Notes: generated from the letters alone by a model not told the origin. 64,000 nucleotides of DNA from an uncultured Gammaproteobacteria bacterium (GCA_964597575.1 CAZQXB010000001.1:704595-768594); one strand, 5' to 3'. Shown: positions 3,066 to 29,001, numbered from the stretch's first letter. Translations and numbers: made by a program.

Positions 3066-3422
3066 TTACGCCTGAGCGCGTGATTTATTGCAGTTGAAGC
3101 AGTAAACTGGACGTGCGCCGCTTGGTTGGAATGGCAATTTATCGATATGCGTTCCACATTGAGCACAGTTCAAGTCTACGTCAAACATCTGGCGTTCCTG
3201 ACGAGGTGCGCTAGCTGCACGCTTATTGCGCAAACAATCGCGGCAGTAGACTGGCTTGTCGCCACTTGGCTGAAATGGAAGCTCACTGATGTGAGCGTTG
3301 CAGTCAGCGCAGTTAAGATCTACCTGCACCATTGGTCTGTCGTTTTGAAATGACATAAAACATTGGGATATGTACGAATTAATCGACCTTTCCCCGTACG
3401 ATGACTCTATACCCCCTATCAT
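3066..3422 (-). CDS. small protein with two tandem C4 zinc-ribbon repeats
   Basis: The motif CxxC-x16-18-CxxC occurs twice with the conserved core LPFQPSG-RPVYCxxC (NCADCNAHISELPFQPSGDKPVYCRDC and NCAQCGTHIDKLPFQPSGARPVYCFNC). Confidence 0.6.
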   Translation of the reverse strand: MIGGIESSYGERSINSYISQCFMSFQNDRPMVQVDLNCADCNAHISELPFQPSGDKPVYCRDCLRNKRAASAPRQERQMFDVDLNCAQCGTHIDKLPFQPSGARPVYCFNCNKSRAQA

Positions 3423-3623: not shown

Positions 3624-4076
3624 CTATGGAGTTGACGATGCTGTTAAACCTGATGGAGTAGCAACGATCGTACCTGACAAACCACTCACTTCACCTTCGA
3701 GTTCACTGGTGATGCTGTATGCTGAACCGTCAGCTGACAAATATTCGTATGTAGTGTTGTTTCCTGGATCTTCAGGAACTAACCCCATATACGCATCGGT
3801 ACAGCCTGCTGCGCCGAAACCAGACTGGTTCAAACACGCGTACTGTGCAGTACCGAGGTCGATAGCAACTGTTGAAGTTGGATAACTATTGTTATCCGTG
3901 TAAAACAATTCGAGTGCGGTTTGGATTTGCTTAATGTCGGACAAACGGCGGGCATCACGCGATTTCTCACGTGCTGAGCCAAGTGCCACTACGGCAAGCG
4001 TTGACAAAAGGCCGATAATCGCGATAACGACCAAAAGCTCAATAAGCGTAAAACCTTTTCTATTCATGATGTTCAC
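3624..4076 (-). CDS. type IV pilin / pseudopilin (prepilin-type N-terminal cleavage and methylation domain)
   Basis: N-terminus MNRKGFTLIELLVVIAIIGLLSTLAV is the class-III signal (G|FTLIELL, Glu at +5) followed by a hydrophobic helix. Size is 150 aa with an SD of AAGGGGGTG. Confidence 0.85.
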   Translation of the reverse strand: MNIMNRKGFTLIELLVVIAIIGLLSTLAVVALGSAREKSRDARRLSDIKQIQTALELFYTDNNSYPTSTVAIDLGTAQYACLNQSGFGAAGCTDAYMGLVPEDPGNNTTYEYLSADGSAYSITSELEGEVSGLSGTIVATPSGLTASSTP

Positions 4077-4124: not shown

Positions 4125-4511
4125 TTAAGCGATGTTCAGTGCTTTCTTTACCTTACCAACCGTTTCGGATGGTTTAAAATGTGCCTTAATCAGATAATCC
4201 ACGGCTCCGAGCTCCAACCCTTTTTCTACGTCGTCTTTTTGCCCTAAGTTGGTAAGAAGGATCACCGGAATCGCACCAGTCTCACTGTCATTTTTCAAAT
4301 GCTTCAACACGGTGAAGCCATCCATTTTCGGCAAAAGAACATCAAGTAAAATAATATCCGGTTTTTTCTTTTTTGCATCATCGAGCCCCGCTTCCCCATT
4401 TTCTGCCACACTGACTCGAAAACCTTCCATCTCAAATTTGGTTTTGTAAATATTTGCGAGAAACGTATCATCTTCCACAAGAAGAACGTGCTTGTTAGTA
4501 GTGTCGGCCAT
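4125..4511 (-). CDS. stand-alone response-regulator receiver (CheY-like) protein
   Basis: LLVEDD...DIILLDVLLPKMDG...ILLTN...K contains the acidic pocket, the phospho-acceptor Asp and the conserved Thr/Lys. There is no output domain (128 aa). Confidence 0.8.
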   Translation of the reverse strand: MADTTNKHVLLVEDDTFLANIYKTKFEMEGFRVSVAENGEAGLDDAKKKKPDIILLDVLLPKMDGFTVLKHLKNDSETGAIPVILLTNLGQKDDVEKGLELGAVDYLIKAHFKPSETVGKVKKALNIA

Positions 4512-4535: not shown

Positions 4536-5663
4536 TTATACAATGTTTCGAAGAGCAAGTCCAATCGCAACCGACATACGAGGCCCAACGGAATCAAGAA
4601 CTGGTTTTAATCCTTGCTGATACACAACACGCGCCCACGGATCTCCTACAAATACTTTGAGTGGAAATGCAGCCGCGAGCTCTAACTGAATGGCAGGTAC
4701 GAGCGCGGAACCGCCAGTCAAAATAATTTTTTCCGGTCGCTTTTCTTCGTTCCCGGTTTGACGCAAATACATATCGAAACCGTATTGCACTTCTTTAATC
4801 ATGGGTTCAATGATATGCGGAAACAATACTTCGGAAATCACCTCACTTGAAACATGTTCTAAATCATATTTCATTTCCCCAGCAGCCACAATATTAACCC
4901 CCAAGCGCTCTGCGATCATTTCATCAATCATGGCTCCTCCAATTTGGATGCTCCGGTGCGTCACGGGAAGCCCCTGATCCATAATAAAGAAATTGGTACG
5001 CTCCGCGCCCATATCAATAACGAGAACGGTTGACGTATCGCGACCAACAAGTGCCCGCTCAAGCGCAAACGCTTCAGTTTCGAGTTCTGCCAAACGAAGA
5101 CCAGCACGTTCAAAAATACTCGTATAAAAAACAATCAATTCTTTCGGTGCAGCTGTAACCAGCACACGCATATTCTTGCGCTGCTTTTCCATATCGGTTT
5201 GCGGAATAATCTGATGCACCACTTGCATTTCACTCGCTGGGCGTGGCAAAAGCTTCCCAATTTTTGCTTCTACATGCTGAACAATTTCTTTTTCCTTAAG
5301 TTCTGGAAGCGTAATAATCGTATGAAAAACATACGACACCGGTAAACTTGCTACGGCTTGGCGCGTAGTCACCTTTGCTTGCTTTACCACTTCTTGCAAA
5401 AGCTTCGCGTAATGATCAACTCGTGCATCTGTCGTTTCTAACCCTGATACCGGAGGAAGTGATGTGGTGGTAACTGGCGCACCCCGCAGCTGTTCAGGAG
5501 TTTTATCTTGTAAATTGGTAACATGAATATCGAGCGGCTCATCAATCATGCCATACGTCCAAAGTTGCGGGCGATTTTTATTTTTTCGAAGCTCAACAAT
5601 TTTAATACCATGCGCTCCGATATCCACCCCCACGAATGATTCTGTTTTTTGAAACATGGCCAT
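4536..5663 (-). CDS. pilM: type IV pilus assembly ATPase-fold protein PilM
   Basis: Actin/Hsp70-like fold motifs: VGVDIGAHGIKIV, DMGAERTNFFI, ILTGGSALVPAI. Length (375 aa) and position next to a pilin gene fit PilM. Confidence 0.8.
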   Translation of the reverse strand: MAMFQKTESFVGVDIGAHGIKIVELRKNKNRPQLWTYGMIDEPLDIHVTNLQDKTPEQLRGAPVTTTSLPPVSGLETTDARVDHYAKLLQEVVKQAKVTTRQAVASLPVSYVFHTIITLPELKEKEIVQHVEAKIGKLLPRPASEMQVVHQIIPQTDMEKQRKNMRVLVTAAPKELIVFYTSIFERAGLRLAELETEAFALERALVGRDTSTVLVIDMGAERTNFFIMDQGLPVTHRSIQIGGAMIDEMIAERLGVNIVAAGEMKYDLEHVSSEVISEVLFPHIIEPMIKEVQYGFDMYLRQTGNEEKRPEKIILTGGSALVPAIQLELAAAFPLKVFVGDPWARVVYQQGLKPVLDSVGPRMSVAIGLALRNIV

Positions 5664-5799: not shown

Positions 5800-7260
5800 A
5801 TGCTCTCCTTATATAATACGCTTTCAAGAACTGCCGAACCGTTTACCCCCCTTAAGGGAAATGATGTGGGTTTGTATACGTGTGGCCCAACCGTGTATCA
5901 CTACGCTCATTTAGGCAACCTCCGAACATATATTTTTGAAGATGTTTTGAAACGCACCTTGGTTGCTAATGGCTACACAGTAAACCATGTCATGAATATT
6001 ACTGACGTCGGTCATCTTACCGACGACGCTGATCAAGGGGAAGATAAAATGGAAAAAGGCTCACGACGAGAAGGAAAAACGGCCTGGGAAGTGGCCGACT
6101 TTTACACTGCCGCATTTTTAAAAGATATTGATGCTCTGAACATCATTCATCCGAATATTTTGTGTAAAGCGACAGACCATATCCCCGAACAAATTGCGCA
6201 AGTTCAAACTCTTATTGATAAAGGCCATACCTACGAAACAGCAGATGGTATTTATTTTGACACCACGAGCATTTCTGATTACGGAAAATTAGCTCAACTC
6301 GAAAAACAGCAACTTGAAGCGGGTGCGCGAGTCGACATGGGTGAAAAAAAGAACCCACACGATTTTGCGCTTTGGAAATTTACCGCGCCAGGTGAAAAGC
6401 GCCAAATGGAATGGGCGGCTTTTGGTCGTATGGGTTTTCCAGGCTGGCATATTGAATGTTCTGCCATGAGTATTAAATACTTAGGAGAACAGTTTGATAT
6501 TCACTGTGGTGGTATTGATCACATTCCCGTCCACCATACGAACGAAATTGCTCAGGCTGAAAGCGCAACCGGAAAAAAACCGTGGGTAAACTACTGGCTC
6601 CACGGAGAGTTCATTTTAACGAACAGTGAAAAAATGGCAAAGTCGGGCGGCAATCTTTTAACGCTCCAGTCTATTATCGACGAAGGTATTGATCCGCTCG
6701 CCTACCGATACTTTGTTCTTCAAACCCATTACAGAAAACAAGCCAATTATACCCTTGAGGCGCTCAAGGCCGCGGCGGCTGGCTACGAACGACTGGTGAA
6801 AGACATCGGACAACTCTATCACCGAAAGATGGAGAATGATTCCTTTGGAAACCGGGGGTATGCGGAAGGGAAAAAGGGGGCATCTTCTGACGAGTGGAAA
6901 AGAATGATGAAAAACCAAATCAATAACGACCTTTCAACACCGCAAATTCTTGGACTTTTGCGCGATCTCATTCGTGACGAAACATTATCGCCGGAAGAAC
7001 GAATGGATGTGATTGAGTATACCGACCAAATTCTTGGTCTTGACCTTTTGAAGAAAGCTGAGGCCTTTTCCCAAAAAAATCAGCATACAGAAAAAAATAT
7101 TGAGATCCCTCAAAAAGTAGAAAAACTTCTTCAGCAACGGGAAATCGCGCGAAAAGAAAAACACTTTGACGAAAGCGACCTCCTTCGTAAAGAAATTCAA
7201 ACTTTTGGCTTCGACGTTGAAGACACCCCTCAAGGACAGCGACTTATCCCACGCACCTAA
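5800..7260 (+). CDS. cysS: cysteinyl-tRNA synthetase
   Basis: Class I aaRS with CGPTVY..HLGN (HIGH-type) and KMAKSGGN (KMSKS) motifs, plus the CysRS Zn ligand region WHIECS. Confidence 0.9.
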
Positions 7261-7320
7261 AAAGAATCCTCGCCCAATTACGAAAATTCTGGTATACTCT
7301 CTCTATCATGTATTTTTCGT

Positions 7321-7860
7321 ATGCCAACTATCGGTAGCCCTCGCACACCAGATAAACTCCCGGAGGGGCTTCGTAAACTCGCTCCACGAGAAGTGGGTAT
7401 TCCGTCTGACCACGAAAACCCACCTCGTGTTGAACGAACAGAACAAGTTCGCGAAAAAGAAAAAACAGAAAACATCCAAAGTCCAAAAGAACAAAAGCCT
7501 GTCGAAGAAGGGCTTATTTCTCGTATTAGAAAACCAAAAGTTATTCCCCAGGTAAAACCCATCACCCGCGATGAAATTACTCGAGATGTGGAACATATTA
7601 TGTCTGAGGGCCTCACTGAGGCATTCAAGGCACTTTCTCCGATTAAGCAACAGGAATTTAAAATGAAAGGAGAAGAGACCGCTCGGGAAATTAGAAGCCT
7701 CCTTTTTTCAACAAAAGTGAAGATGAAAAAAATCTTTGAACTTATTTTTGACTGGCTGAAACTCCTTCCCGGGGTCAACAAATTCTTTCTGGAACAGGAA
7801 GCAAAAATTAAGGCTGAGCGTGTCATGCGCTTGAAAGAGCTCAAAAATTTTCGCCCTTAA
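7321..7860 (+). CDS. hypothetical Lys/Glu-rich protein, first gene of the ATPase operon
   Basis: 179 aa ORF ending 3 nt before the ATPase gene. It is a charged low-complexity protein with no recognised domain. Confidence 0.45.
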   Translation: MPTIGSPRTPDKLPEGLRKLAPREVGIPSDHENPPRVERTEQVREKEKTENIQSPKEQKPVEEGLISRIRKPKVIPQVKPITRDEITRDVEHIMSEGLTEAFKALSPIKQQEFKMKGEETAREIRSLLFSTKVKMKKIFELIFDWLKLLPGVNKFFLEQEAKIKAERVMRLKELKNFRP

Positions 7861-7863
7861 TGT

Positions 7864-10431
7864 ATGCCGCCAGAATTCCTCGGCGACGCACAACCCTATT
7901 TCAATACCAGCGCATCCGTTGATACCACACTCGTTGCGCTTCTTTTGTTTGGAGCCATTGCCGGTGTTGCCACATTTGTTTTTATCCTCCGGGGAATACT
8001 TCATGTAAAATTTCGCAAAGAAAGTAGTTTTACCCGAGTCGTTCTTCGCATTACGGTTCCAAAAGAGCGTCGCAGTGAGGGCCAAGGAAACCAAAGCCAA
8101 CAAGAAGATCGACTAGAACAAGTGCGTGAAGAAATTGGACTTACAGAAACATTCTTTGGCACGATTGCAGGGCTAAAAGCAGAACGCGGTATGGCTCCGT
8201 GGTTTCGTGGACGAAGTGATCATTTAGCCTGTGAAATGGTCGTTCACGACGGCCTCATTACCTTCTACATTGAAGTTCCCAAACGTTTTCGCACCATGAT
8301 TGAGCAGCAGATTCAGGCCCAGTACCCGCATGCCGAAATAGAACAAATGATTGACTACAACAATTTTAGCCCGAAAAGCAGTATTGTGGGCGCCTATATC
8401 GCAAGCGATGGTCCACGCGTTTCCCCGATTAAAACATATCGTAAAATTGAATCGGACCCCCTCTCATCACTTCTAAACGTCCTTGCGAAAGTGCGGGAAC
8501 CTGGAACAAGTTTGGCTGTGCAATATGTTATTCGATCGGCCAAAAAATCGTGGCGCCGTGAAGGGGTTGGCCTTATTGAAAACCTCAGAAAAGGGAAAGG
8601 ATCAAGCGGTTTGGCTGGAAACGTAGGTTCAGGCGTGGCCGGATTTGGCAGCGCCATTGTACAAAACGTAGCAGGCTCCAAAAATGATAAAAACAAATCT
8701 TCGAAAGATGAAAAGAAACACGAACTTACCCAAGCCGAACAAGAACTTATTAAAAACATCCAAGAAAAGCTTGGGAAAGGCGGGCTTGATGTGACGGTTC
8801 GCCTGCTCTCAGTAGCCGATTCTCCAGAAATTGCAAAAACAAACCTCGACAACCTTGTCTCTTCATTTAGCCAGTACAATCTCTACCAGTACGGAAATAG
8901 CTTAAAAGCAGTTATTCCCCGAAATCAAACACAACTAATTCGTGATTTTATTTATCGCACCTTTCACGAGAAGCGAGCCTTTGTCGTCAATACTGAAGAA
9001 ATGGCCGGCCTCTGGCATCTTCCTCTTCACTCAACCGAAACTCCGAACATTCGCTGGCTTGGTGCACGCAAAGCCCCTCCCCCATCCAATGTACCAACCG
9101 AAGGAATTCTTCTTGGACATGTGAACTACCGGGGAACTGACACGCCAATTCACATGAAAGATGCCGATCGTCGGCGCCATATGTATGTAATTGGGAAATC
9201 CGGCTCTGGAAAATCAGTCCTCCTCGCGAATTTAGCTATTCAAGATATTAAAAATGGACACGGCATTTGTATTATCGACCCTCACGGAGATCTAGTAGAG
9301 GATGTTTTGCAACATGTGCCAAAAGAACGGGCTGAGGATGTGATTATATTGAATCCTTCCGATGTTGAGAGGCCCATTGGGCTAAACATGCTCGAGGCGA
9401 AGACGGAAGATCAGAAAGATTTTGCCGTGGGAGAAATGATCGCCATCTTCTACAAGCTCTTTCCACCGGAAATGATTGGGCCAATGTTTGAGCACAACAT
9501 GAGAAATGTGATGCTCACCCTCATGGCGGACATCGATAACCCAGGCACGATTATCGACATCCCTCGCATGTTTACGGATGATGCTTATGTCAAAAAATAC
9601 TTGGTGAAATTGAAAGATCCTGTTGTGCGAGCCTTCTGGGAAAAAGAAATGGCCAAAACGAGTGATTTCCACAAATCTGAAATGCTTGGCTACCTTATTT
9701 CTAAAGTGGGCCGCTTCGTGGAAAACGAAATGATGCGAAACATCATGGGTCAGCAAAAGAGCGGCTTCAATTTTCGCGAAGCCATGGATAAGAAAAAAAT
9801 TCTTCTCGTCAATTTGGCGAAAGGAACTACCGGAGAAATGAACGCTAAACTCATTGGGCTTATTGTGGTAGCAAAACTTCAGATGGCAGCCATGAGCCGG
9901 GCTGATCTTCCTCAAGAAGAGAGAACTGACTTCTACCTGTATATCGACGAGTTTCAAAACTTTGTAACGGATTCGATTTCGACCATTCTCTCCGAAGCCC
10001 GCAAATACCGCCTTAATCTTATTATTGCCCATCAATATATGGGGCAGCTTATTGACGAAAAGGGCCGCGATGATATTCGGAAAGCCGTGCTTGGAAATGC
10101 GGGTACCATGGCCGCGTTCCGTGTAGGCCCTGAGGATGTAGAAATTCTTTCAAAAGAATTTGCACCAACGTTTGGCGGCTACGACCTCTTAAACGCACCA
10201 CAATTTTCTTGTTATACAAAATTGCTCATTGACAATACCGCAAGTAAGCCATTCAATATGCTTACCTATCCGTACAACCAGGGAAATAAAAAACTGGCAG
10301 AAGCGATTCGTCAGCTTTCTCGACTTACCTACGGTCGCGATCGCCGCATTGTCGAAGAAGAAATTCTTGAGCGAACCCAAATTGGGGCGGCTGAAACAAA
10401 AGCGAAAACAAGTGTTGAGTCAAGTTTATAA
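7864..10431 (+). CDS. membrane-anchored HerA/FtsK/VirD4-superfamily P-loop ATPase with a novel ~420 aa N-terminal domain
   Basis: N-terminal TM helix (LVALLLFGAIAGVATFVFIL). Walker A YVIGKSGSGKS is followed by IIDPHGDLVED (the HerA/DUF87-type DPHGE/D motif). Walker B FYLYIDEFQNF, then IIAHQY. Residues 30-420 are homologous to ORF 18913-20349 (AQYPHAEIEQMIDY vs AQYPEAEITEIEDY; EEMAGLWHLPLH..APPPSNVPTEG vs EELATIWHFPMS..EPPSDLPVEG). Confidence 0.75.
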   Translation: MPPEFLGDAQPYFNTSASVDTTLVALLLFGAIAGVATFVFILRGILHVKFRKESSFTRVVLRITVPKERRSEGQGNQSQQEDRLEQVREEIGLTETFFGTIAGLKAERGMAPWFRGRSDHLACEMVVHDGLITFYIEVPKRFRTMIEQQIQAQYPHAEIEQMIDYNNFSPKSSIVGAYIASDGPRVSPIKTYRKIESDPLSSLLNVLAKVREPGTSLAVQYVIRSAKKSWRREGVGLIENLRKGKGSSGLAGNVGSGVAGFGSAIVQNVAGSKNDKNKSSKDEKKHELTQAEQELIKNIQEKLGKGGLDVTVRLLSVADSPEIAKTNLDNLVSSFSQYNLYQYGNSLKAVIPRNQTQLIRDFIYRTFHEKRAFVVNTEEMAGLWHLPLHSTETPNIRWLGARKAPPPSNVPTEGILLGHVNYRGTDTPIHMKDADRRRHMYVIGKSGSGKSVLLANLAIQDIKNGHGICIIDPHGDLVEDVLQHVPKERAEDVIILNPSDVERPIGLNMLEAKTEDQKDFAVGEMIAIFYKLFPPEMIGPMFEHNMRNVMLTLMADIDNPGTIIDIPRMFTDDAYVKKYLVKLKDPVVRAFWEKEMAKTSDFHKSEMLGYLISKVGRFVENEMMRNIMGQQKSGFNFREAMDKKKILLVNLAKGTTGEMNAKLIGLIVVAKLQMAAMSRADLPQEERTDFYLYIDEFQNFVTDSISTILSEARKYRLNLIIAHQYMGQLIDEKGRDDIRKAVLGNAGTMAAFRVGPEDVEILSKEFAPTFGGYDLLNAPQFSCYTKLLIDNTASKPFNMLTYPYNQGNKKLAEAIRQLSRLTYGRDRRIVEEEILERTQIGAAETKAKTSVESSL

Positions 10432-10455
10432 TAATAACACCATTTTAATACACAT

Positions 10456-11082
10456 ATGAATGACCTTTCTTTTGCACACACCTCATTTGATCCTGCGGCC
10501 GAACCAGTTCCTCCGACCCCTGTTTCTCCAAGCGATAACGCCCCACTGCCCCAGACTTCACCAACAGCACCCCCAGACCTTGCCATTGTCCGCCAGATGA
10601 TTCACCGCATGAAAGACGAACTCGACGCTATGCTTCGCGTACTTCAGGGTGACTCGAGCGGATCAAAAGACTTTCGCCCTCATTTTGAAACAATTACTGC
10701 CGGATCTAACATTCAGATACAGGAAGGTGTCTTTACCGGCAACATGATGCGGGCCACCGACGGCAAAGAATACAGCATCCCCCCAAACTATGCGAGCAAA
10801 TCGAAACTGGTAGAGGGCGACCGCATGAAACTCACTATTACTCCGAGCGGTGCGTTTATTTACAAACAAATTGCTCAGATAGAACGCGATCGTGTTACAG
10901 GCGAACTGACCCTTGACCCAGGCACTGGTCAATGGCATGTGGTCGTGAATGGAAAGCCATACAAAGTATTAACCGCTTCGGTAACCTTTTATCGCGGAAA
11001 ACCAGGAGATAAAGTTTCTATTTTAGTCCCAAAAGGAGTTGAGGCTTCTTGGGGCGCAATGGAGAATGTCATTCAGGGATAG
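10456..11082 (+). CDS. hypothetical protein with Pro-rich N-terminus, last gene of the ATPase operon
   Basis: 208 aa ORF with a 25-nt gap after the ATPase gene, followed by a strong terminator. Confidence 0.45.
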   Translation: MNDLSFAHTSFDPAAEPVPPTPVSPSDNAPLPQTSPTAPPDLAIVRQMIHRMKDELDAMLRVLQGDSSGSKDFRPHFETITAGSNIQIQEGVFTGNMMRATDGKEYSIPPNYASKSKLVEGDRMKLTITPSGAFIYKQIAQIERDRVTGELTLDPGTGQWHVVVNGKPYKVLTASVTFYRGKPGDKVSILVPKGVEASWGAMENVIQG

Positions 11083-11103
11083 CATTCAATATACCTCAAA
11101 AAC

Positions 11104-11138
11104 AAAAATACCCCGGGCCTTGGGGTATTTTTGTTTTC
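11104..11138. terminator. bidirectional intrinsic terminator
   Basis: Perfect 11-bp stem AAAAATACCCC/GGGGTATTTTT with loop GGGCCTT. The A-tract and T-tract on either side serve the convergent genes 10456-11082 (+) and 11161-11433 (-). Confidence 0.6.
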
Positions 11139-11160
11139 TATCCGACTCTTGCCTTACTGT

Positions 11161-11433
11161 TTATTTTTTATCTGGGTCGGTCACATGAGTTGAAATAAGT
11201 TTTGCCATTTCAAACATGTTCACCTGTGATTTTCCTCCGAAAAGCACTTTGAGCTTTTCGTCAGCGTTAATATTACGCTTATTCTTCATATCTTGCAAAC
11301 CTTTTGCCTTGATGTATTCCCAAACCTTTTTCATTACCTGACCGCGAGACATTGGACCTGGTCCTGCAACTGCCTGTAACACTGGTGACAGGTTGAGTGG
11401 CTTAAGAAGTGCTGGGTTGGCTTTCCGTGGCAT
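11161..11433 (-). CDS. SWIB/MDM2-domain protein
   Basis: LKPLNLSPVLQAVAG...SRGQVMKKVWEYIKAKGLQDMKNKRNINADEKLKVLFG...VNMFEMAKLISTHV matches the bacterial SWIB consensus. Confidence 0.75.
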   Translation of the reverse strand: MPRKANPALLKPLNLSPVLQAVAGPGPMSRGQVMKKVWEYIKAKGLQDMKNKRNINADEKLKVLFGGKSQVNMFEMAKLISTHVTDPDKK

Positions 11434-11646
11434 ACACGATATTTAGAAAATTAAATACTACGTTGTAGTTATGCCCACACTATAACACAGGGGTCATGCG
11501 AAGGGCAATAGGTTATACACAGGGAGGAGGAGTGGTGCCAAGAAACATAAAAAACAACGAATACTTTTTCTCAAAGAAAAAAAGAAAACATCTTCCCCAT
11601 CATGAGAAAGTACTATATACTACGTTTCACTAACACGAACGAATAT

Positions 11647-13266
11647 ATGGCACTCTACCACAAGTACCGCCCTCAAACTTTTGCTGATGTTACTGGCCAA
11701 GAACACATAGTTCGAACAATCTCGAATCAAATTCGCACCAATACGCTCGGTCATGCGTATCTTTTCTCTGGACCTCGCGGGGTTGGTAAAACAACCACTG
11801 CCCGCCTCATTGCCAAAGCCGTCAATTGTGAAAAACGGTCCAAAGATATTTTCGAACCCTGCAATACCTGCACATCGTGCATCGAAATTACCGCTGGACA
11901 TGCTTTAGACGTTGTTGAAATTGATGCGGCGAGCCACACCGGTGTTGACCATGTGCGCGAACACATTATCGATAACGCTCGTTTCCGCCCTACAAAATCT
12001 CCGTTTAAAATATTTATTATCGACGAGGTCCACATGCTTTCCACCTCGGCGTTTAATGCGCTTCTAAAAACCCTAGAGGAACCGCCGGCGCATGTTGTAT
12101 TTATTTTAGCGACGACCGAACTTCAAAAAATTCCCGAAACCATTCTTTCCCGATGCCAACGATTTCAGTTCAAAAAAATGCCCTTTGACGACATGCGAAA
12201 GCATTTGCTCGATATCGCCAAGGCAGAAGATATTACAATTGACGATGAGCCGCTTCATCGCATTATTGCCAAAAGTGATGGTTCAGTACGCGATGCCATG
12301 AGCTTGCTCGACCAGCTCATCTCTTTGGGTGAAAAAAAGATTACTGAAGCGAACGCTGCTGCTATTCTCCCTCTCCATAATCTTGATACTGCGTTTCGCT
12401 TTATTGAAAAAACACTTCAAAGAAACCCGGTTGAAGCACTTCGCATACTTGATGCCGCAAGTGAAGCCGGAACATCATGGATTGATTTAGCCGACGACTG
12501 TGTCGTTATTGCGCGTCTCATGTGTATTGGCCGCGTTGGAGGGGATACAAGCCAAGTTGCCCTTCCTATTCCCAAATCCGTGGAAACATCTGCAGGGGCA
12601 CTGGGAAAAAATCTCTCCTCAAGCGAATTGATTCGTTTTATGGACATGCTCCTTTCGCGCCGGGCCGAAATTGCAAAAAGCCCTATCCCAGAACTTCCTT
12701 TTGAAATGCTCACTATTGCCTGGAGTGCCGAAGAAGAAAAAGGGCCACCTCTACCAACCACCAGCTCGATAAACGTTGCTTCGAAAAAAGTGGAACCGGA
12801 AAAAAAAGAGATTCCAGTTGTTTCAAAAAAAGTACTCGCCTCTGAAATGCCGTCACCACCCACTCCCCCTCCTGTTTCTCCTGTTCAACCAGTTGAAGAA
12901 ATAAAAAACAGTACCCCAGAAGAAACCGCGGCCCTTCCCCCACTTGATTTTGGAACGGTGCAGCTAAAATGGAAGCAATTGGTAAAGTCTCTTGAAACAC
13001 GCTCACCTTCATTGGTTTCTGTGCTTCACATGGCTCGCGTGGAAGGGGTCGAGGGAAGAACCATTACCCTTTCTGTCCCTTTTGCTTTTCACAAAGACAC
13101 GCTGGAGAGCAAAAACGGAAGACCGGCACTTGCTGCAGCCCTTCTTGAGCACTTTAATGGCCGGGCAGATCTTTCTATTCTTATCAAAGAAGAAAAAACA
13201 GACACCGCAGACCCAGATCTCGCGCATCTTGCTGCAGCATTTGGTGGAGAATTTGTATCCCCATAG
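11647..13266 (+). CDS. dnaX: DNA polymerase III subunit gamma/tau
   Basis: YRPQTFADVTGQEH, Walker A GPRGVGKTT, zinc module CxxCxxC (CNTCTSC), Walker B IFIIDEVHML, and sensor SRCQRF. The start was set at MALYHKYRPQTF. Confidence 0.9.
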   Translation: MALYHKYRPQTFADVTGQEHIVRTISNQIRTNTLGHAYLFSGPRGVGKTTTARLIAKAVNCEKRSKDIFEPCNTCTSCIEITAGHALDVVEIDAASHTGVDHVREHIIDNARFRPTKSPFKIFIIDEVHMLSTSAFNALLKTLEEPPAHVVFILATTELQKIPETILSRCQRFQFKKMPFDDMRKHLLDIAKAEDITIDDEPLHRIIAKSDGSVRDAMSLLDQLISLGEKKITEANAAAILPLHNLDTAFRFIEKTLQRNPVEALRILDAASEAGTSWIDLADDCVVIARLMCIGRVGGDTSQVALPIPKSVETSAGALGKNLSSSELIRFMDMLLSRRAEIAKSPIPELPFEMLTIAWSAEEEKGPPLPTTSSINVASKKVEPEKKEIPVVSKKVLASEMPSPPTPPPVSPVQPVEEIKNSTPEETAALPPLDFGTVQLKWKQLVKSLETRSPSLVSVLHMARVEGVEGRTITLSVPFAFHKDTLESKNGRPALAAALLEHFNGRADLSILIKEEKTDTADPDLAHLAAAFGGEFVSP

Positions 13267-15292: not shown

Positions 15293-15363
15293 TCGGGGAT
15301 CGTCTAACGGTAGGACTTCAGGTTCTGGTCCTGAATATCGGGGTTCGAATCCCTGTCCCCGAA
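15293..15363 (+). tRNA. tRNA-Gln (anticodon CTG)
   Basis: Hand-folded cloverleaf. Acceptor TCGGGGA/TCCCCGA with U1-A72, a Gln identity element. D stem GTCT/GGAC. Anticodon stem TCAGG/CCTGA with loop TTCTGGT (anticodon CTG). T arm CGGGG-TTCGAAT-CCCTG. Discriminator A, no encoded CCA. Confidence 0.8.
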
Positions 15364-18912: not shown

Positions 18913-20349
18913 TTAGGAATCGAGTATATGGCCGGAATCGGTCATGTACCGTCGCGGAGCAGGCTTGTCTGGTGCTGGGGTTGGCTCTACAGACTTCTTC
19001 TCTTCAACCATGACACCCTGCGGCAAAACCATACCCAGACCCTCAACTGGCAAGTCTGACGGCGGCTCGGTTTTCTTCGCCCCAGCTTTTTGTAAGAGTG
19101 GTACCCGCACGTGAGACATTGGAAAGTGCCAAATTGTGGCCAGCTCTTCAATATTCAACACAAATGATTTCAAAATTTTTCCCATGGCCCGTTCTTTATA
19201 GGCCTGCATAATTTTTCGCTTGCGTTCATTTTTTATTCTATCAGCAAACAAATATTTGGTACTGGTGAGGTATTTTGGTAAAAGTGCATTCGAGGTGGGG
19301 TTGTTAAACTGATTGATCGCCCCGATAAGCGAATTCACCCCACGCGCCGGGTTAAATATCTCTTTCCGAGCCACATAAATCATGCGAATTTTTGTTTTGT
19401 ACCCAATTTTACTAATTTTATCTTCCATGGCTTCGACCAATTTTTTCTGCCCTGGAGTAAGGTATTGCATTTTATTTTGATCACTTTTTCCCTCTTTTGC
19501 GGCCCCCTCTCCCCCACCTAAAAACTCACTTCCAACCAACTGTGGCCCAAAAACGTTTGCAGCCTGGATTGGAATATCTAAGGCTTTTCCTAAAAAACCC
19601 TGTTTTTTAGGCTTTTTCTTTTCTCCAATAAGCTTATTAATCTCCTCAATAGAATCCTTTTTCCACTCTTTATCAGGGGTCGGCTCAATCACCATCTGGT
19701 ACCACATCTGTTCGCCCGGACCAATGCGACTGAAACTTTCCAAGAATGTACCCATCGGATCTTTCACTGGCGCATCTTTATCAACCATGTGCTCGAAATC
19801 ACGGTATACCCGAAGCGGGTAGGCATCAGGCGCCACCAACTTAAACTCAGCCCCCCACATATTATATGTTTTGTCAGGGTAGTGCTCGGGAATTCCCTTG
19901 GTGTAATCTTCAATTTCCGTAATTTCAGCTTCAGGGTATTGTGCATAAAGTGCCGCCTCCATAACGTCACGGTACTGTTCTAAAACCCGCACGACAAACT
20001 GGATATACCCCTCGATACTTACAATTTCAAAACTGAACGAAAAAGGTTCAAACCCTCGCCGATACATGAGGGCGATAGCATTCCCTTCGTAAATAGAAAA
20101 AATATGAGCGAACATTTGCTCAACCGCTTTTGGTGTCTGAACATTGAGCTGCGGAACATCAATCGCAAGGTGTACCCAACGCCACTTATCAACATATTTT
20201 TTATTCTTGTAGAAAGCCAATAAAAAAAGACCGCCTTTCAAAAGTAAGGCCGCAACAAGAATCCAAGCCCCGGCAGTAAAAAGTCGCGTCAAAGCGACAA
20301 CGGGCGGAGCCGTAACCTCACGCATGACAAGAAAGAGAAACTCTTCCAT
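18913..20349 (-). CDS. membrane-anchored paralog of the N-terminal domain of the 855-aa ATPase, lacking the ATPase
   Basis: 478 aa with TM helix AGAWILVAALLLKGGLFLLAFY. It aligns along its whole length with residues about 30-420 of ORF 7864-10431, including the conserved blocks AQYPEAEITEIEDY and IWHFPM...EPPSDLPVEG. It ends where the ATPase module begins in the long protein. Confidence 0.65.
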   Translation of the reverse strand: MEEFLFLVMREVTAPPVVALTRLFTAGAWILVAALLLKGGLFLLAFYKNKKYVDKWRWVHLAIDVPQLNVQTPKAVEQMFAHIFSIYEGNAIALMYRRGFEPFSFSFEIVSIEGYIQFVVRVLEQYRDVMEAALYAQYPEAEITEIEDYTKGIPEHYPDKTYNMWGAEFKLVAPDAYPLRVYRDFEHMVDKDAPVKDPMGTFLESFSRIGPGEQMWYQMVIEPTPDKEWKKDSIEEINKLIGEKKKPKKQGFLGKALDIPIQAANVFGPQLVGSEFLGGGEGAAKEGKSDQNKMQYLTPGQKKLVEAMEDKISKIGYKTKIRMIYVARKEIFNPARGVNSLIGAINQFNNPTSNALLPKYLTSTKYLFADRIKNERKRKIMQAYKERAMGKILKSFVLNIEELATIWHFPMSHVRVPLLQKAGAKKTEPPSDLPVEGLGMVLPQGVMVEEKKSVEPTPAPDKPAPRRYMTDSGHILDS

Positions 20350-20611: not shown

Positions 20612-21553
20612 TTATGCTCGACGACGCATTTGCCAGTTGTTGAGCGTCACAAGAAGTGGGCTCGCCAGGAAGATAGAAGAATATGCCCCGGCAAAGATAC
20701 CAACGATGAGTGTTAGAGCAAAGTTGTGGATGCTCTCACCGCCAAAAAAGAAGATCGCGAGCAAACTCAGTTCAGCGGTGAACGAGGTATTAAAGGAACG
20801 AATGACCGTCTGGTTCACACTCATTTCGACGGTATCGTCAAAATTCGCAGTTCCTCGGCGTAGGATGTTCTCACGAATTCGATCGAAAACAATGATCGTA
20901 TCGTTTACGGAATACCCAAGAATCGTCAAAAGGGCTACCACAATAGGAATGTCAATCTCGAGCCCTGCAAATCTCCCCAAAACCGACAACACCCCCATGG
21001 TGATAAGAATATTATGGATTAAAGCAATAATAGCAATTGCCCCATACTTCCACGAAGTAACAGGCTGAGATACTTTTCTGAAGGTGTAAGCAACGTAGAG
21101 AATGATACCAAGTAATACTGCGGCTGTAGCAGCTACGGCGCGATTTCGAAGTTCAACGCTAATTGCTGGACCAACCTTCTCAAAACGGTCTTCGCGAAAA
21201 GCGGCAGCCAACTCTTCTGCCCCAGTAGCACCAGTAAGCTCTGAAAGCTCATTGAGCACATTCTGGTGTTCTTCTTCAGACAAGAAGCGCATGCGCAAAA
21301 TGTACCCATTGTCGCCCGTTGTTTGAGCAACCACCTGGTCAATTCCAGCTTCACGCACCTCAGCAATCACAGCCTCTTGACTCGGACGCTCCTGTAGATA
21401 CGTAACCGCAACAAGCGATCCACCAGTGAAATCAATCCCTGGTTTTAATCCAAAGATCACGAGCACCACAATACTTGCGATCGATAAGACGCTTGAGATA
21501 AAGAATGGAATCGAACGGTATCGGACAATCTTAAACGTAAACATAGTCATCAT
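20612..21553 (-). CDS. secF: protein translocase subunit SecF
   Basis: GIDFTGGSLVAV and a six-TM RND-like C-terminus. Its start codon overlaps the secD stop. Confidence 0.85.
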   Translation of the reverse strand: MMTMFTFKIVRYRSIPFFISSVLSIASIVVLVIFGLKPGIDFTGGSLVAVTYLQERPSQEAVIAEVREAGIDQVVAQTTGDNGYILRMRFLSEEEHQNVLNELSELTGATGAEELAAAFREDRFEKVGPAISVELRNRAVAATAAVLLGIILYVAYTFRKVSQPVTSWKYGAIAIIALIHNILITMGVLSVLGRFAGLEIDIPIVVALLTILGYSVNDTIIVFDRIRENILRRGTANFDDTVEMSVNQTVIRSFNTSFTAELSLLAIFFFGGESIHNFALTLIVGIFAGAYSSIFLASPLLVTLNNWQMRRRA

Positions 21554-23598
21554 TATGATTTTCGTTTCTTCGCTCCTAAAAAGAGCCGATTACCATGTTC
21601 AGGAAACCATGGCACCATAAAACGAAGAATAACACGGGTAACGGTAATTGCGGAAAACATACTCACAAACACCCCGATAATCAGAACGAAGGCAAACCCT
21701 TTCACGAAACTAGAACCGAACCACAGAAGTACGACACAGGTAATAATCGCTGACACATTACCATCATGAATGGCGTTCCATGCTCGATCAAACCCTTCTT
21801 CAACGGCCTTAAACAACGATTTTCCACCCTGAAGTTCTTCTTTTAATCGCTCAAAGATAAGGACATTGTTATCAATCGCCATACCCATAGAAAGAATGAG
21901 ACCGGCAATACCCGATAACGTGAGGGTTACCCCAAAGAGTTTAAAGAGGGCAAGTGTAAGCACGGTGTAGAGGGCTAAACTGAGTGTCGCAATGAGACCA
22001 GGCAATCGGTATACTGCGACCATGAAAATCGCAATAAGAGTGAGCGCAGCCAAACCTGCTTTCAAACTAAGGGTAAGGGAATCAAGTCCGAGGGTCGCTC
22101 CAACCTGCTGCTGACTCACGAGCTCAACCGGTACAGGCAAGGCTCCGGCATTCAACTGTTGGGTCAACAATTTCGCTTCAGCAAAGGTAAAGCCTCCTTG
22201 AATGACGGCTCGGCCATCACTAATGACGGTTTGTACAACCGGTGCACTAATAGGGTTATTATCGAGGAAGATTCCCACTTGTTTCCCCAAATTGCGTTCC
22301 GTAATTTCACGGAAAAGGTCGCGACCTTCGTCGTTAAACTGAAGTGACACCATAACCGCACCGGTTTGCTGGTCACTCACCACTTCTGCGCGTTTAAGCT
22401 GAGAGCCAGAAAGTTTTGTTGGCTTCCAACCGTTATTTGGTGGAACAATATCGTCTTTTGTTTTGGTGGCTACAAAAACATGAGAAAGCTCATATTCTTT
22501 TTCAGGTCCTTCGCTAATCTTATAGATAACATGGTACCCGAATTCTGTTTCGACCGGTCCAATAATTTCTCCGGCTTTGGCTGCTGAAACTGCATCGTCA
22601 AAAGCTTTTACCATTTGACCTTTCGTAAAGCTACCTAAGTCACCGCCAGTTTGTGCGGCCCCAGGTTCTGTTGAGTATTTTTTCGCAAGTTCACTAAAAT
22701 TCTTCGCATTCGCTTCTTTAAAAATATCTTCGGCTTTCTTTCGCGCCTCTTCTTTCGTATACAGTGGCTCGTCACATCCCTGCGACCCTAAATAGCAGAA
22801 TAAAATATGTTTTGCCGCAATAACTGGCGCACCATCGCGTTCTCCCCCGCGCTTTAATATATGGTACCCGAGTGGTGTTTCAATAAGCGTCTGTGATGTT
22901 TGGTCGGGTTTTGCACTCTCAGCCCAGGTGTACATATTTTCATACACCGTTCGCTTATTCACAAAACCAAGATTACCAGCGAGATCCTTACTTTGCGTAT
23001 CATCGCTTAACTCTTTTGCAAGAGTTGCAAAGTCTTCCCCTTTTTTCACGCGAGCAAGAGTGGTATTCGCTTTTTTAAGCGCTTCTGCATTAAAGTCGGC
23101 CAATTGTTTTTCTTCTTCAGCAGTTAATGCACGCGCTGGCTCGTTTGATGGTTCACGAAAATCCAAAATTGGCGTTTCTCCAATCAAACGAATTGCTTGT
23201 GTAATATCTTGAACTCCAGGAAGTTCAACGAGAATACGGTACGCATCCCCTACTTTTGTAGTCTGGACATTCGACTCTGCCACACCGAACGCATTCACCC
23301 GGCGCTCAATAACACCACGCACACCCTCTACGGAATCGGCTTGGTCAGCAGCCGGAAGGCTTGTCACATTTGCCTCATATACTAACTGCGCGCCCCCTTG
23401 TAAATCGAGCCCCAAAGAGAACGATTTTGGTGGAATCCGAGGGATACCGAGCGCAATACTTCCATTGACCGCATCAATAGCTTTATTCGCATAGGCCGGA
23501 AAAATATACACGGCGCAAGCTACGATAAGCACAAAAATACCCGCAATTCCCCATCGGACCTTCGCACGAACTTCAGCTGCAGAAAGTGTTTGTTTCAT
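21553..23598 (-). CDS. secD: protein translocase subunit SecD with two inserted parvulin-type (PpiC) peptidyl-prolyl isomerase domains
   Basis: N-terminal TM, LGLDLQGGAQLVYEA (SecD P1 motif), and a C-terminal six-TM bundle. The periplasmic region holds two rotamase modules: DFATLAKELSDD...LAGNLGFVNK...ETPLGYHILK and NFSELAKKYSTEPGAAQTGGDLGSFTKGQMVKAFDDAV...GPVETEFGYHVIYK. Confidence 0.85.
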   Translation of the reverse strand: MKQTLSAAEVRAKVRWGIAGIFVLIVACAVYIFPAYANKAIDAVNGSIALGIPRIPPKSFSLGLDLQGGAQLVYEANVTSLPAADQADSVEGVRGVIERRVNAFGVAESNVQTTKVGDAYRILVELPGVQDITQAIRLIGETPILDFREPSNEPARALTAEEEKQLADFNAEALKKANTTLARVKKGEDFATLAKELSDDTQSKDLAGNLGFVNKRTVYENMYTWAESAKPDQTSQTLIETPLGYHILKRGGERDGAPVIAAKHILFCYLGSQGCDEPLYTKEEARKKAEDIFKEANAKNFSELAKKYSTEPGAAQTGGDLGSFTKGQMVKAFDDAVSAAKAGEIIGPVETEFGYHVIYKISEGPEKEYELSHVFVATKTKDDIVPPNNGWKPTKLSGSQLKRAEVVSDQQTGAVMVSLQFNDEGRDLFREITERNLGKQVGIFLDNNPISAPVVQTVISDGRAVIQGGFTFAEAKLLTQQLNAGALPVPVELVSQQQVGATLGLDSLTLSLKAGLAALTLIAIFMVAVYRLPGLIATLSLALYTVLTLALFKLFGVTLTLSGIAGLILSMGMAIDNNVLIFERLKEELQGGKSLFKAVEEGFDRAWNAIHDGNVSAIITCVVLLWFGSSFVKGFAFVLIIGVFVSMFSAITVTRVILRFMVPWFPEHGNRLFLGAKKRKS

Positions 23599-26779: not shown

Positions 26780-26905
26780 ACAAGTGAATAGGGATGTAAC
26801 ACGTCGGAGTGTAGCACTTCCCCTCGCTATTGGCAACCCCAAAAAATGCAAAAGGACAGATGGGGATCTGTCCGGAGAAAAGAAAACGAGGGTTCTTTAA
26901 GAGCT

Positions 26906-27307
26906 CTAGCGCATGACTTCTGTTCTGAAGTGACCATGACACCGCCTGCCGTTCGTTCTAAGACCGAGGATATACTTCCCGGGCAGAATGGGCGGCAACT
27001 CAACCGCTGCCAAGTACTTCCGCCCCTCTGTGTCCGATACGTCGACCACTGTCTGCACTCCAAGAATGGCGAGGCGATGAAAGGTTCGACGCACTGGGCC
27101 TTGTGGAATGACGAACGAATCATGAACCACAAAGCAGATTGGGGCACTAACGACGAGCACAGGATGCCGTCGAGCCTGAGCTGGAACTGTAAACTCAATA
27201 CCTACGAAGCCGTCGCTCGCCTCAATATTCTGCATGAGTGCATATCGACGGACATAGATGCCTCCAACAAACAGACCGACCACGAGGAACACGTACATGG
27301 AAATCAC
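26906..27307 (-). CDS. hypothetical small membrane-anchored protein (high-GC island 2)
   Basis: 133 aa ORF with an N-terminal TM helix (YVFLVVGLFVGGIYV). GC is about 55%. Confidence 0.35.
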   Translation of the reverse strand: MISMYVFLVVGLFVGGIYVRRYALMQNIEASDGFVGIEFTVPAQARRHPVLVVSAPICFVVHDSFVIPQGPVRRTFHRLAILGVQTVVDVSDTEGRKYLAAVELPPILPGKYILGLRTNGRRCHGHFRTEVMR

Positions 27308-27323
27308 GGTGAACTTCCTTCCA

Positions 27324-27983: not shown

Positions 27984-28163
27984 GAACAATCCTCTCCTTG
28001 CCCAAGGTTGGGCGCCGCACCTGCCAAAAACGACAGATGACTTTTGAGAATACTTGAGTTGCACCAAAAAGTCAAGGCAAAACTTCTTCAATTATAAAGA
28101 GCGTAGAGGGTGATCTACGCTCGGGGAAGAACTCCCGGGAATGGAACGGTATCGGCGTGGGCG

Positions 28164-28763: not shown

Positions 28764-28890
28764 CTCGTGTCCTCTTTCTGCAAGCAGGATCGCTTGCGAT
28801 TTCTAATCTCTATATACCAAAAAAAAGCTTAAAAGTCAATAATTTAGCTCTCACCCTTCCACATATTCACAAGTCAAACCCTTCTTCCTC

Positions 28891-28919: not shown

Positions 28920-29001
28920 CGCCTGTCTGTGTACGTCTTTAACCTACATTAGGAAAAGATGCGATGCGCAGAAGGACAAGGCCCTAGGGAGGGCAACGAC
29001 A

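Follow-up and report, generated by a model that had tools for sequence, protein, structure and literature searches.

A membrane-anchored ATPase joining DUF8128 to a coupling-protein-type motor in a Candidatus Magasanikbacteria-like genome

The DNA analysed here (64 kb, the window) comes from a Candidatus Magasanikbacteria-like genome (Patescibacteria, an ultra-small bacterium) and is housekeeping in character. Three co-directional open reading frames, orfA, an ATPase gene and orfC, lie on the plus strand and have a perfect 17-bp hairpin at their end. The features referred to below are as follows.

3624-4076, minus strand: pilin gene
4125-4511, minus strand: response regulator gene
4536-5663, minus strand: PilM gene
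7290-7298, plus strand: candidate extended -10 promoter element, TGgTATACT
7321-7860, plus strand: orfA, 179 aa
7864-10431, plus strand: whole gene for a membrane-anchored DUF8128-T4CP fusion ATPase, 855 aa (domain searches, AF2)
7930-7989, plus strand: single TM helix, residues 23-42 (hydropathy, flank charges, AF2)
8029-9108, plus strand: DUF8128 (PF26449) domain, residues ~56-415
9109-10263, plus strand: T4CP-type P-loop motor, residues ~416-800
10264-10431, plus strand: conserved C-terminal tail, residues 801-855, ending E-x-S-L
10456-11082, plus strand: orfC, 208 aa
11099-11137, both directions: intrinsic-terminator-like hairpin
18913-20349, minus strand: stand-alone DUF8128 paralog, 478 aa, TM helix and DUF8128 only (BLASTP, PF26449)
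55991-57496: ComEC gene, 45 kb from the ATPase gene

The neighbours of the ATPase gene are CysRS, orfA, orfC, SWIB and DnaX. The gap between orfA and the ATPase gene is 3 nt (TGT), as given in the first-pass annotation, and that between the ATPase gene and orfC is 24 nt, not the 25 nt given there. The putative promoter element was read by eye 22 nt 5′ of orfA, past the CysRS stop codon, and was left out by a promoter scan because it has no -35 match. The hairpin, located between the convergent orfC (plus) and SWIB (minus) genes, pairs perfectly over 17 bp around a loop of 5 nt and is bordered by an A-run at one end and a T-run at the other. Its free energy is -21.5 kcal/mol (z-score -5.0), and an equal folding was reached in 0 of 200 shuffles. 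The three reading frames, the bidirectional hairpin, the nearby pilin and PilM genes and the retained ComEC gene were all described in the first-pass annotation and were all found. It had also placed the ATPase gene outside any recognisable ICE, and the 64-kb window indeed contains no ICE hallmarks; no relaxase, VirB4, VirB6, channel or other VirB gene was found in it, and no VirB3/VirB6/VirB8-type gene adjoins the ATPase gene.

The 855-aa protein consists of four parts, one TM helix, DUF8128 (PF26449), a PPPxNxP linker and a VirD4/TrwB-type ATPase, and its full-length AF2 model has a pLDDT of 85.1 and a pTM of 0.72. There is only one hydrophobic segment (core residues 23-42, AF2 helix 21-55), with flank charges of -3 on the N-terminal and +4 on the C-terminal side. 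The predicted topology is N-out/C-in. DUF8128 and the ATPase would both be cytoplasmic, because there is no second TM helix before the P-loop domain, which is necessarily cytoplasmic. DUF8128 is predicted to be an α+β domain with a fold like that of the VirB4 N-terminal domain, and its C-terminal end carries a conserved EEMAxxWHxP motif followed by the PPPSNVP linker (9076-9096). An unusual domain of ~400 aa between the TM helix and the P-loop, noted earlier as uncharacterised, is thus present but is not without a family; PF26449 matches are found in precomputed annotation of an identical protein (P0001) and of all listed homologs.

The motifs on which a HerA/FtsK/VirD4-superfamily ATPase had been proposed were all located. 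GKSGSGKS (Walker A) corresponds to residues 444-451 (9193-9216), IIDPHGD to residues 470-476, and YLYIDEFQNF (Walker B/DEF) to residues 691-700 (9934-9963). All catalytic motifs are intact in alignment A1. An all-α insertion, modelled by AF2 as helices at residues ~515-642, sits between Walker A and Walker B (691-697). The motor is strongly conserved (82% and 73% identity). In the C-terminal tail, E852 and L855 are invariant in alignment A1 and S854 is present in at least 90% of the sequences; by analogy with T4CP C-tails, this segment may serve in docking.

The ATPase scored above the Pfam cut-offs with TrwB_AAD_bind (42.9 bits, cut-off 20.5; alignment over residues 433-758), T4SS-DNA_transf (36.5 bits, cut-off 20.1) and TraG-D_C (28.8 bits, cut-off 22). 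Its NCBIfam matches are TraD/VirD4-like families, and TrwB is its sole PDB sequence match. By sequence, the motor is VirD4/T4CP. On the other hand, structure comparison assigned the N-domain to the VirB4 N-terminal-domain fold. The protein is therefore a hybrid of two families, VirB4 and VirD4, that the first-pass annotation had excluded together with FtsK and EssC. The FtsK_SpoIIIE model reached 13.8 bits, below its cut-off of 24, and neither a gamma domain nor a multi-TM N-terminus is apparent. The single P-loop domain differs from the two to three tandem FtsK-like ATPase domains of EssC/EccC, to which EssC adds FHA domains (EccCb E 0.016, residues 412-480 only). Neither the N-terminal HAS barrel nor the NurA or Sir2/DUF partner of HerA was found, and GspE-type (T2SSE; PilB/PilT/ComGA) and ComFA domains gave no match at E≤1. 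DEAD matched the Walker A region only (E 0.023).

The N-domain fold and the order of N-domain and P-loop, which is that of VirB4, could also mean that the protein is VirB4, the core T4SS ATPase, mislabelled as a coupling protein by profile models. We consider this improbable. T4CP models pass and VirB4 models fail: P-loop_TraG gave 12.2 bits (cut-off 25.8), TIGR00929 (VirB4) matched the Walker A region only (E 0.022), and CagE_TrbE_VirB and AAA_10 gave no match. Further, an Embleya plasmid and phage G (see below) encode a VirB4-like ATPase in addition to the homolog, which has a relaxase next door, and Patescibacteria already possess a VirB4 clade of their own, whose gene is often near dnaA (PMC12102498).

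A survey of homologous loci showed that the neighbourhood is conserved. An orfA homolog (alignment A4) lies directly 5′ of the ATPase gene in 78 of the 80 genome loci and in all 4 distant loci with differing flanks (HMM E 1e-40 to 1e-48), at a median spacing of 4 nt (n=82 loci); orfA is a strict genetic partner of the ATPase. The N-half of its product is variable, charged and Pro-rich, and the C-half is conserved and helical (FK.KGEETA..I...WLK.LPGVN.FFLEQEAKIK); it has 38 K+R, 29 D+E and 16 P and no match in Pfam, NCBIfam, PADLOC, PHROG or PDB. The orfC product has a variable, Pro-rich N-part (19 P, most of them in the N-terminal third) and a conserved, β-rich C-part (EGVFxG..M.G.DGKEY.VPPNYASKSKLVEGD.MKLTI...; alignment A3), and no Pfam, NCBIfam, other family or PDB match. 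These compositions agree with the earlier description of charged or Pro-rich hypothetical proteins. However, orfC follows the ATPase gene in 48/80 loci and 3/4 distant loci at variable spacing, and in locus L085 a 1416-aa gene separates the two. Hence, of the three-gene operon proposed in the first-pass annotation, orfA and the ATPase gene form a tight two-gene unit, and orfC is a loosely linked neighbour, not a fixed member.

DnaX is found 3′ in 64/80 loci and also in L082 and L085, and the SWIB gene adjoins, which would suit a chromosome- or replication-linked, FtsK-like DNA pump. Such a pump is very unlikely, as L083 and L084 have no DnaX beside the ATPase gene and the FtsK model and features fail as described above.

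The first-pass annotation had proposed a motor that drives uptake or secretion in a divergent type IV pilus/competence apparatus. In favour of this are the pilin, response regulator and PilM genes, which lie 2-4 kb upstream here and recur in 15-20 of 80 related loci. In addition, a Kuenenbacteria locus has PilM-PilN-PilO convergent directly after the ATPase gene, and ComEC is present in the window. However, the linkage is not conserved: pil genes are nearby only at the level of Magasanikbacteria synteny and in the one Kuenenbacteria locus, and there is no pil gene within 7 kb in L082, L083 and L085, which represent three other lineages. Adjacency within Magasanikbacteria is uninformative because synteny there extends over the entire region, with CysRS and DnaX as part of it. 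Given also the distance to ComEC, the lack of similarity to PilB/PilT (GspE) or ComFA families and the company kept by the relatives described below (not pilus genes or ComEC), this proposal is not supported and has little likelihood.

In four other metagenome contigs (L086, L087, L088 and L089), DUF8128 and the ATPase are encoded by two adjacent genes. In L087, a 635-aa DUF8128 gene precedes an 881-aa ATPase that is 44% identical to residues 417-847 of the fused protein and that starts exactly at the domain border. Since the two parts are split in some contigs and fused here, this shows that DUF8128 and the motor form one functional module. The stand-alone paralog in the window lies directly 3′ of SecD-PPIase/SecF with no ATPase gene after it, and matches residues 99-437 of the fused protein (BLASTP 1e-29). 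It shares 34-43% identity with split-type DUF8128 proteins and 22-28% with the fused N-domain; judged from these identities, its ortholog is the DUF8128 part of the two-gene form.

The split module is accompanied by SecDF and a sigma4/HARE-HTH protein, which counts against a pilus motor and raises the question of a motor that works with Sec to export proteins or to extract them from the membrane. Stand-alone or split DUF8128 genes are on the same strand as and 3′ of SecD-SecF in the window and three other contigs, with the sigma4/HARE-HTH gene between SecDF and DUF8128 in two of these loci. VirB4 reportedly dislocates pilin from the membrane, a report attributed to Kerr & Christie in 2010, which was counted for this explanation. 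We nonetheless regard it as quite unlikely: the fused gene is beside Sec genes in 0/84 loci, the L088 split pair is without SecDF in the stretch covered, and the mobile-element relatives are linked to DNA-processing nickases.

These relatives belong to mobile elements of Gram-positive bacteria: WP_331738717 of an Embleya plasmid, CLJ_RS00250 of C. botulinum pCLJ, gp156 of Bacillus phage G and the SPO1-like phage gene CampHawk_129 (phrog_5156). They have the same TM-DUF8128-ATPase build over 76-82% of the protein at 21-33% identity. The phrog_5156 match covers residues 118-840 (5.8e-90). On the Embleya plasmid, PrgI and a VirB4-like gene are followed by the gene for an 812-aa T4CP, whose N-part resembles DUF8128, and then by Replic_Relax. 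Phage G encodes the TrbL/VirB6-like gp153, the VirB4-like gp155, the homolog gp156 and a Replic_Relax protein, gp146; CampHawk_129 overlaps a Replic_Relax gene. The relatives are embedded in transfer or replication modules whose other genes include Replic_Relax nickases and genes like those for VirB4, VirB6, PrgI or VirB2, whereas the chromosomal gene is not. No orfA or orfC homologs were found with them, and no published function was found for any of the four. The Replic_Relax nickases and VirB4-, VirB6- and PrgI/VirB3-like genes beside them give them the look of coupling ATPases that serve DNA transfer, in the coupling position of a conjugation-like apparatus.

Phage and plasmid relatives, together with a PADLOC mad8 match (1.3e-15) and weak HerA matches on the P-loop region, might indicate that an integrated conjugative element or prophage has decayed here and left this gene behind, or that the gene belongs to a HerA- or mad8-like defence system. 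The context, however, is housekeeping, and partners of the integrase, relaxase, nuclease, Sir2 or NurA kind were not found in it. This, the constant chromosomal position across 80 loci, the motor identity of 82% and the intact catalytic motifs make such an origin or role extremely unlikely.

The protein is probably, though by no means surely, a chromosomally fixed coupling-protein-type translocation ATPase of Patescibacteria (VirD4/TrwB branch) with an unusual build. From a short outside tail, it would pass through one membrane helix into cytoplasmic DUF8128, a Pro-rich linker, the T4CP motor and the C-tail. DUF8128 may be a membrane-proximal docking platform, using the surface by which the VirB4 N-domain holds VirB3/VirB8-type partners; it may also bind the orfA product. 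It would position the ATP-driven, probably hexameric motor at a membrane channel, and the motor would most likely feed or energise transfer of a macromolecule, the best guess being DNA or nucleoprotein. The route could be the type IV system that Patescibacteria encode at another site, or a different channel. The motor appears domesticated, because relaxase and channel genes are absent nearby in this genome, and a coupling role is proposed by analogy only, since the 64-kb window has no channel, relaxase or VirB gene.

In a broader and rather doubtful proposal, the module of TM-DUF8128 and T4CP motor, in its split as well as its fused form, would translocate macromolecules autonomously and without need of a relaxase, and would retain the ancestral VirB4/VirD4 build of N-terminal docking domain and motor. 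With orfA-type partners, it might be a core Patescibacteria machine for import or export of nucleic acid or protein at host contact, and large Bacillus phages (SPO1-like, G) might use the same module in a step of DNA handling that has not been recognised before.

Patescibacteria encode 5,713 VirD4-like T4CPs in 2,918 genomes; only 148 of these have virB4 nearby, and what they do is an open question (PMC12102498). Per genome, there are about two VirD4-like 'orphans', located away from the essential type IV secretion cluster (PMC12102498). In S. epibionticum, as Wang et al. 2023 are summarised in PMC12102498, a t4cp homolog is not essential and the T4SS is. The new elements here are that orphan VirD4-like proteins carry, or pair with, a VirB4-N-domain-like membrane docking domain, that a small gene is their fixed partner, that split and fused forms are interchangeable, and that their relatives include coupling ATPases from Replic_Relax-type Gram-positive elements and from SPO1-like phages. 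The VirB4-like fold suggests how many unexplained Patescibacteria coupling motors are built and attached, and the four new elements together yield concrete, testable hypotheses on their docking and partners. They also bear on the way in which coupling proteins are held at the inner-membrane complex and on whether the common ancestor of VirB4 and VirD4 had a shared N-terminal domain.

Among known systems, TrsD of pGO1/pSK41 has remote likeness to the VirB4 N-terminus and is abundant in Patescibacteria (PMC12102498). Like the split form, it is a separate gene for a VirB4-N-terminus-like protein beside an ATPase. However, TrsD has 227 aa and lies beside VirB4, whereas DUF8128 proteins have 430-690 aa and a TM helix and lie beside a T4CP-like ATPase; hhalign of the DUF8128 profile with the single pSK41 TrsD sequence gave a probability of 0.5%. 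EccE of type VII (ESX) secretion (PDB 6lar_G), a different system, gave a far weaker, partial structural match to DUF8128 (145 residues) with no sequence similarity.

Canonical T4CPs have two TM helices with the motor directly after. The 855-aa protein shares with T4CPs (VirD4/TrwB/TraD/TraG; PDB 1e9r) the P-loop motor, all-α insertion, TraG-D_C region and N-terminal membrane anchor, and its mobile-element relatives adjoin a relaxase-type gene. It differs in having one TM helix, in the ~360-residue DUF8128 between anchor and motor, in its occurrence as two genes elsewhere, and in being chromosomal and core, with a relaxase or T4SS gene seen only beside the distant plasmid and phage relatives. 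From VirB4/TrwK (PDB 7o42, 8rtb; 4ag5, C-terminal domain) it is set apart by its own TM helix, where VirB4 depends on VirB3, by the lack of any VirB4 sequence model above threshold and by the separate VirB4-like ATPase on mobile elements; the domain order and the N-domain fold are the same in both.

The ATPase gene is the second of three genes read in the same direction, and each of the three ORFs proposed in the first-pass annotation was recovered at its coordinates. The cluster and two further genes of the window are as follows.

5800–7260: cysteinyl-tRNA synthetase, upstream of orfA
7321–7860, + strand: orfA, 179 aa
7864–10431, + strand: ATPase (DUF8128–T4CP fusion), 855 aa
10456–11082, + strand: orfC, 208 aa
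55991–57496: ComEC

The genes are separated by 3 nt (orfA and ATPase) and 24 nt (ATPase and orfC). orfA and the ATPase gene share a reading frame, with only TAA and one codon (TGT) between them; the frame is also shared in the distantly related locus L082, not in L083, and is probably of no meaning. The motifs reported earlier for the ATPase lie at residues 444–451 (GKSGSGKS), 470–476 (IIDPHGD) and 691–700 (YLYIDEFQNF), and the single TM helix corresponds to one hydrophobic segment with core residues 23–42, preceded by a net charge of −3 and followed by +4. The perfect hairpin was likewise found, at 11099–11137 (17 bp with flanking A- and T-runs; −21.5 kcal/mol, z = −5.0), between the convergent orfC and SWIB-domain genes.

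Genes for PilM, a response regulator and a type IV pilin lie upstream on the opposite strand to the ATPase. The other genes of the window have housekeeping roles (among them SecA, SecDF, DnaX, FolD, Dus, Mur enzymes, LeuRS, IF-2, SHMT, MgsA), and no integrase, relaxase, VirB4 or VirB6 was found in the 64 kb. The ATPase gene is real, chromosomal and highly conserved. An origin in an ICE, a prophage or a defence system was rejected on the basis of the housekeeping context and the conservation, and the reading of the gene as a remnant or a defence gene is less likely.

A protein identical to the ATPase is recorded in NCBI on a contig of 913,817 bp. The best 120 homologs of the ATPase are 64–82% identical over the full length and are assigned by their sources to Candidatus Magasanikbacteria or Patescibacteria. 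Many GTDB representative records with Magasanikbacteria-type orthologs and synteny (L001, L005, L007 and others) are titled 'uncultured Gammaproteobacteria bacterium', which looks like a mislabel. The homologs are annotated as 'type IV secretion system DNA-binding domain-containing protein' or 'type IV secretory system conjugative DNA transfer family protein'. In the C-terminal half, TrwB_AAD_bind, T4SS-DNA_transf, TraG-D_C and DUF87 all exceed Pfam cut-offs, the NCBIfam matches are TraD/VirD4-like models, and TrwB is the only solved structure matched by sequence. The motor is 82% identical within Magasanikbacteria and 73% over the wider set. VirB4, FtsK and EccC models remained below threshold and were confined to the surroundings of Walker A, and an FtsK-like reading of the protein is less likely. 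The fold, as modelled, places the motor in the superfamily and leaves VirB4 and T4CP undecided; the sequence models and the gene context on mobile elements decide in favour of T4CP, and a VirB4 reading is less likely. The identity and architecture of the protein as a coupling ATPase of the type IV kind are secure.

The N-terminal half corresponds to PF26449 (DUF8128) in the precomputed annotation. An AlphaFold2 model of residues 50–425, built from 38 input sequences including a divergent paralog family, had a pLDDT of 78 and a pTM of 0.80. In the Foldseek search suggested for this domain by the first-pass annotation, all 12 matches at E ≤ 1e-3 were TrwK/VirB4 chains from R388 complexes. As the model lacks a P-loop and no other P-loop protein was among the matches, the matched part is probably the VirB4 N-terminal domain, and DUF8128 is predicted to have a VirB4-N-domain-like fold. 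According to the titles of those PDB entries, the VirB4 N-terminal domain belongs to an inner-membrane complex with VirB3, VirB6 and VirB8. No sequence relation was detected between DUF8128 and TrsD of pSK41. DUF8128 is probably cytoplasmic, since no TM segment lies between it and the ATPase.

The window includes a second copy of the domain, close to genes of the Sec system.

18913–20349, − strand: stand-alone TM+DUF8128 protein, 478 aa
20612–21553, in the − strand neighbourhood of the stand-alone DUF8128 gene: SecF
21553–23598, − strand: SecD
24017–26851: SecA

The 478-aa protein matches residues 99–437 of the ATPase (BLASTP, 1e-29), and its gene, which has no ATPase beside it, directly follows those for SecD-PPIase and SecF. 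In this SecD, the periplasmic part is interrupted by PPIase (rotamase) domains, with two matched stretches; the same fusion occurs in the related loci L086 and L087, with one or two rotamase matches and 46–48% identity. DUF8128 of the split type is also located downstream of SecDF in L086, L087 and the P0379 contig. The gene following the stand-alone copy is Dus in the window and an ATPase gene in L086 and L087. A reading of the 855-aa ATPase as Sec-linked, to which this location is relevant, is less likely.

Searching 1.84 billion proteins with a profile of both DUF8128 families gave 3,886 clusters at E ≤ 0.001, each represented at 50% identity, and most of these are stand-alone forms of 430–690 aa. 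Members of the family of the window's stand-alone copy share a conserved tail at the C-terminus, 'TDSG...(K/R)FG'. Wherever the DNA downstream of a stand-alone gene could be read, a T4CP-like ATPase gene was next (4/4 contigs; L086, L087, L088 and L089), and in all four the start of this split ATPase coincides with the start of the motor in the fused protein. The ATPase of L087 (881 aa; gene at 9924–12569, after the DUF8128 gene at 8001–9908) is 44% identical to residues 417–847 of the fused protein. The split DUF8128 proteins have long disordered tails ending in PPxxLP(F/Y/I)(V), and the same proline motif ends DUF8128 and makes the linker in the fused protein (PPPSNVP, residues 405–411). DUF8128 and the motor are one module that occurs in split and fused forms. 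Identity to the split-type DUF8128 is 34–43% for the stand-alone copy of the window and 22–28% for the fused N-domain, and the window has only one T4CP-like ATPase gene. Since the stand-alone copy is closer to the split type, the genome would therefore include a fused paralog and an orphaned half of a split paralog. The upstream partner of the split module is a Sigma70_r4/HARE-HTH protein, not orfA; no homolog of this protein was found in the window, and HMM searches of the split-type loci for orfA and orfC gave no relatives.

Relatives of the fused protein are also present on phages and plasmids. The family phrog_5156, which has no assigned function, matches residues 118–840 (5.8e-90), and the fused architecture was detected by tblastn in gp156 of Bacillus phage G (residues 95–791, 5e-47) and in SPO1-like Herelleviridae (residues 124–787). 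In phage CampHawk (L090, 6767–10304), the homolog follows a ParM/Alp7A-like gene and overlaps a Replic_Relax gene ('replication initiation by nicking'). In phage G (L091, 2818–8382), it comes after the VirB4-like ATPase gp155 and the TrbL/VirB6-like gp153, with Replic_Relax near; together these amount to a conjugation-like mini-cluster in a lytic phage genome. Plasmids of ~270 kb in C. botulinum and C. sporogenes carry an 800-aa version, and the overlapping gene upstream of it matches TrbC/VirB2 just under threshold. An Embleya plasmid has the order PrgI, VirB4-like ATPase, 812-aa T4CP (33% identity to residues 369–824), Replic_Relax and NlpC/P60. The DUF8128 HMM detects the N-terminal parts of all these phage and plasmid relatives (E 8.8e-20 to 9.4e-8). 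Taken with the gene orders, this indicates that on mobile elements the homologs hold the position of the coupling protein beside a nickase and coexist with a separate VirB4. No relatives of orfA or orfC were found with their HMMs in the phage or plasmid loci.

Conservation of the neighbourhood was surveyed in GTDB species representatives, which supplied 80 loci of Magasanikbacteria-like genomes (ATPase identity 57–79%). An orfA homolog lies immediately upstream of the ATPase in 78 of the 80, the remaining two being cut at that point, and orfC lies downstream in 48. CysRS, PilM, DnaX and a C39 peptidase are also syntenic in the Magasanikbacteria-like loci, and this depth is therefore not discriminating. 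Four distant loci (L082–L085), including Kerfeldbacteria, Buchananbacteria and Kuenenbacteria, have varying flanking genes (CorA, AAA ATPase, PrmC, L27). Despite these different flanks, orfA is directly upstream in all four (HMM E 1e-40 to 1e-48), and the gap to the ATPase has a median of 4 nt over 82 loci. Thus, orfA is a fixed partner of the fused ATPase. Three of the four have orfC, at a variable distance from the ATPase; in L085 a 1,416-aa gene intervenes. Immediately upstream of the orfC homolog, three distant lineages have a small gene (~176–179 aa) for a membrane-anchored SAM-methyltransferase-like protein, absent at the corresponding position of the window.

L082, 9554–10093: SAM-methyltransferase-like gene, between ATPase and orfC
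L083, ~9570–10100: SAM-methyltransferase-like gene, between ATPase and orfC
L085, 14212–14742: SAM-methyltransferase-like gene

Searches of the PDB with the orfA and orfC profiles gave nothing significant; the best matches, to bucandin (0.022), p300 (0.07) and DotY (0.18–0.32), were taken as chance. The comparative context does not support the earlier proposal of a pilus or competence motor: pil genes adjoin the ATPase only in Kuenenbacteria among the four distant loci, and none lies within 7 kb of it in the remaining three.

Further features of the window were recorded. The ComEC region (55101–57496, − strand) consists of two consecutive ORFs with a 4-nt overlap, one for DUF4131 and Competence (501 aa) and one for a separate metallo-beta-lactamase (297 aa). 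Between MnmA and the pilin gene, 3066–3422 (− strand) encodes a 118-aa protein with two zinc-ribbon-like repeats (LNCAxCxxHIxxLPFQPSGxxPVYCxxC). A predicted surface protein of 1,498 aa (38946–43442, − strand) with SdrD_B, DUF11 and carboxypeptidase-regulatory-like repeats is possibly an adhesin. A GC-rich island at 27000–30500 (up to 66% GC, ~45% for the window) has overlapping ORFs on both strands (255 and 199 aa, −; 234 aa, +) and no Rfam match, and is possibly foreign DNA. In the segment 14300–16200 (52–57% GC), no long ORF is convincing and the only tRNA lies at 15293–15363; the Rfam scan of the window gave one tRNA and nothing else at gathering score.

The preferred explanation is that DUF8128 would serve as a docking platform close to the membrane, in the way that VirB4 employs its own N-domain, and that orfA may bind to it. 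The motor would be hexameric and would energise transfer of DNA or another macromolecule in Patescibacteria, via a T4SS encoded elsewhere or another channel. The build and partner set of the ATPase are previously undescribed. Literature searches covering VirB4/TrsD, SPO1 replication-relaxation, CPR coupling proteins and DUF8128 itself yielded no account of the architecture, and no paper was found that names DUF8128 or deals with its fold, with the pairing of split and fused forms, with orfA or with the relatives in phages. In S. epibionticum, an essential T4SS cluster has no recognisable coupling or relaxase proteins (Wang et al. 2023, PMC10633639), and Quinonero-Coronel et al. (PMC12102498) give the t4cp homolog as not essential and leave exaptation open. 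The latter paper also reports abundant TrsD proteins, which it describes as distantly resembling the VirB4 N-terminus and of which most adjoin virB4 (PMC12102498).
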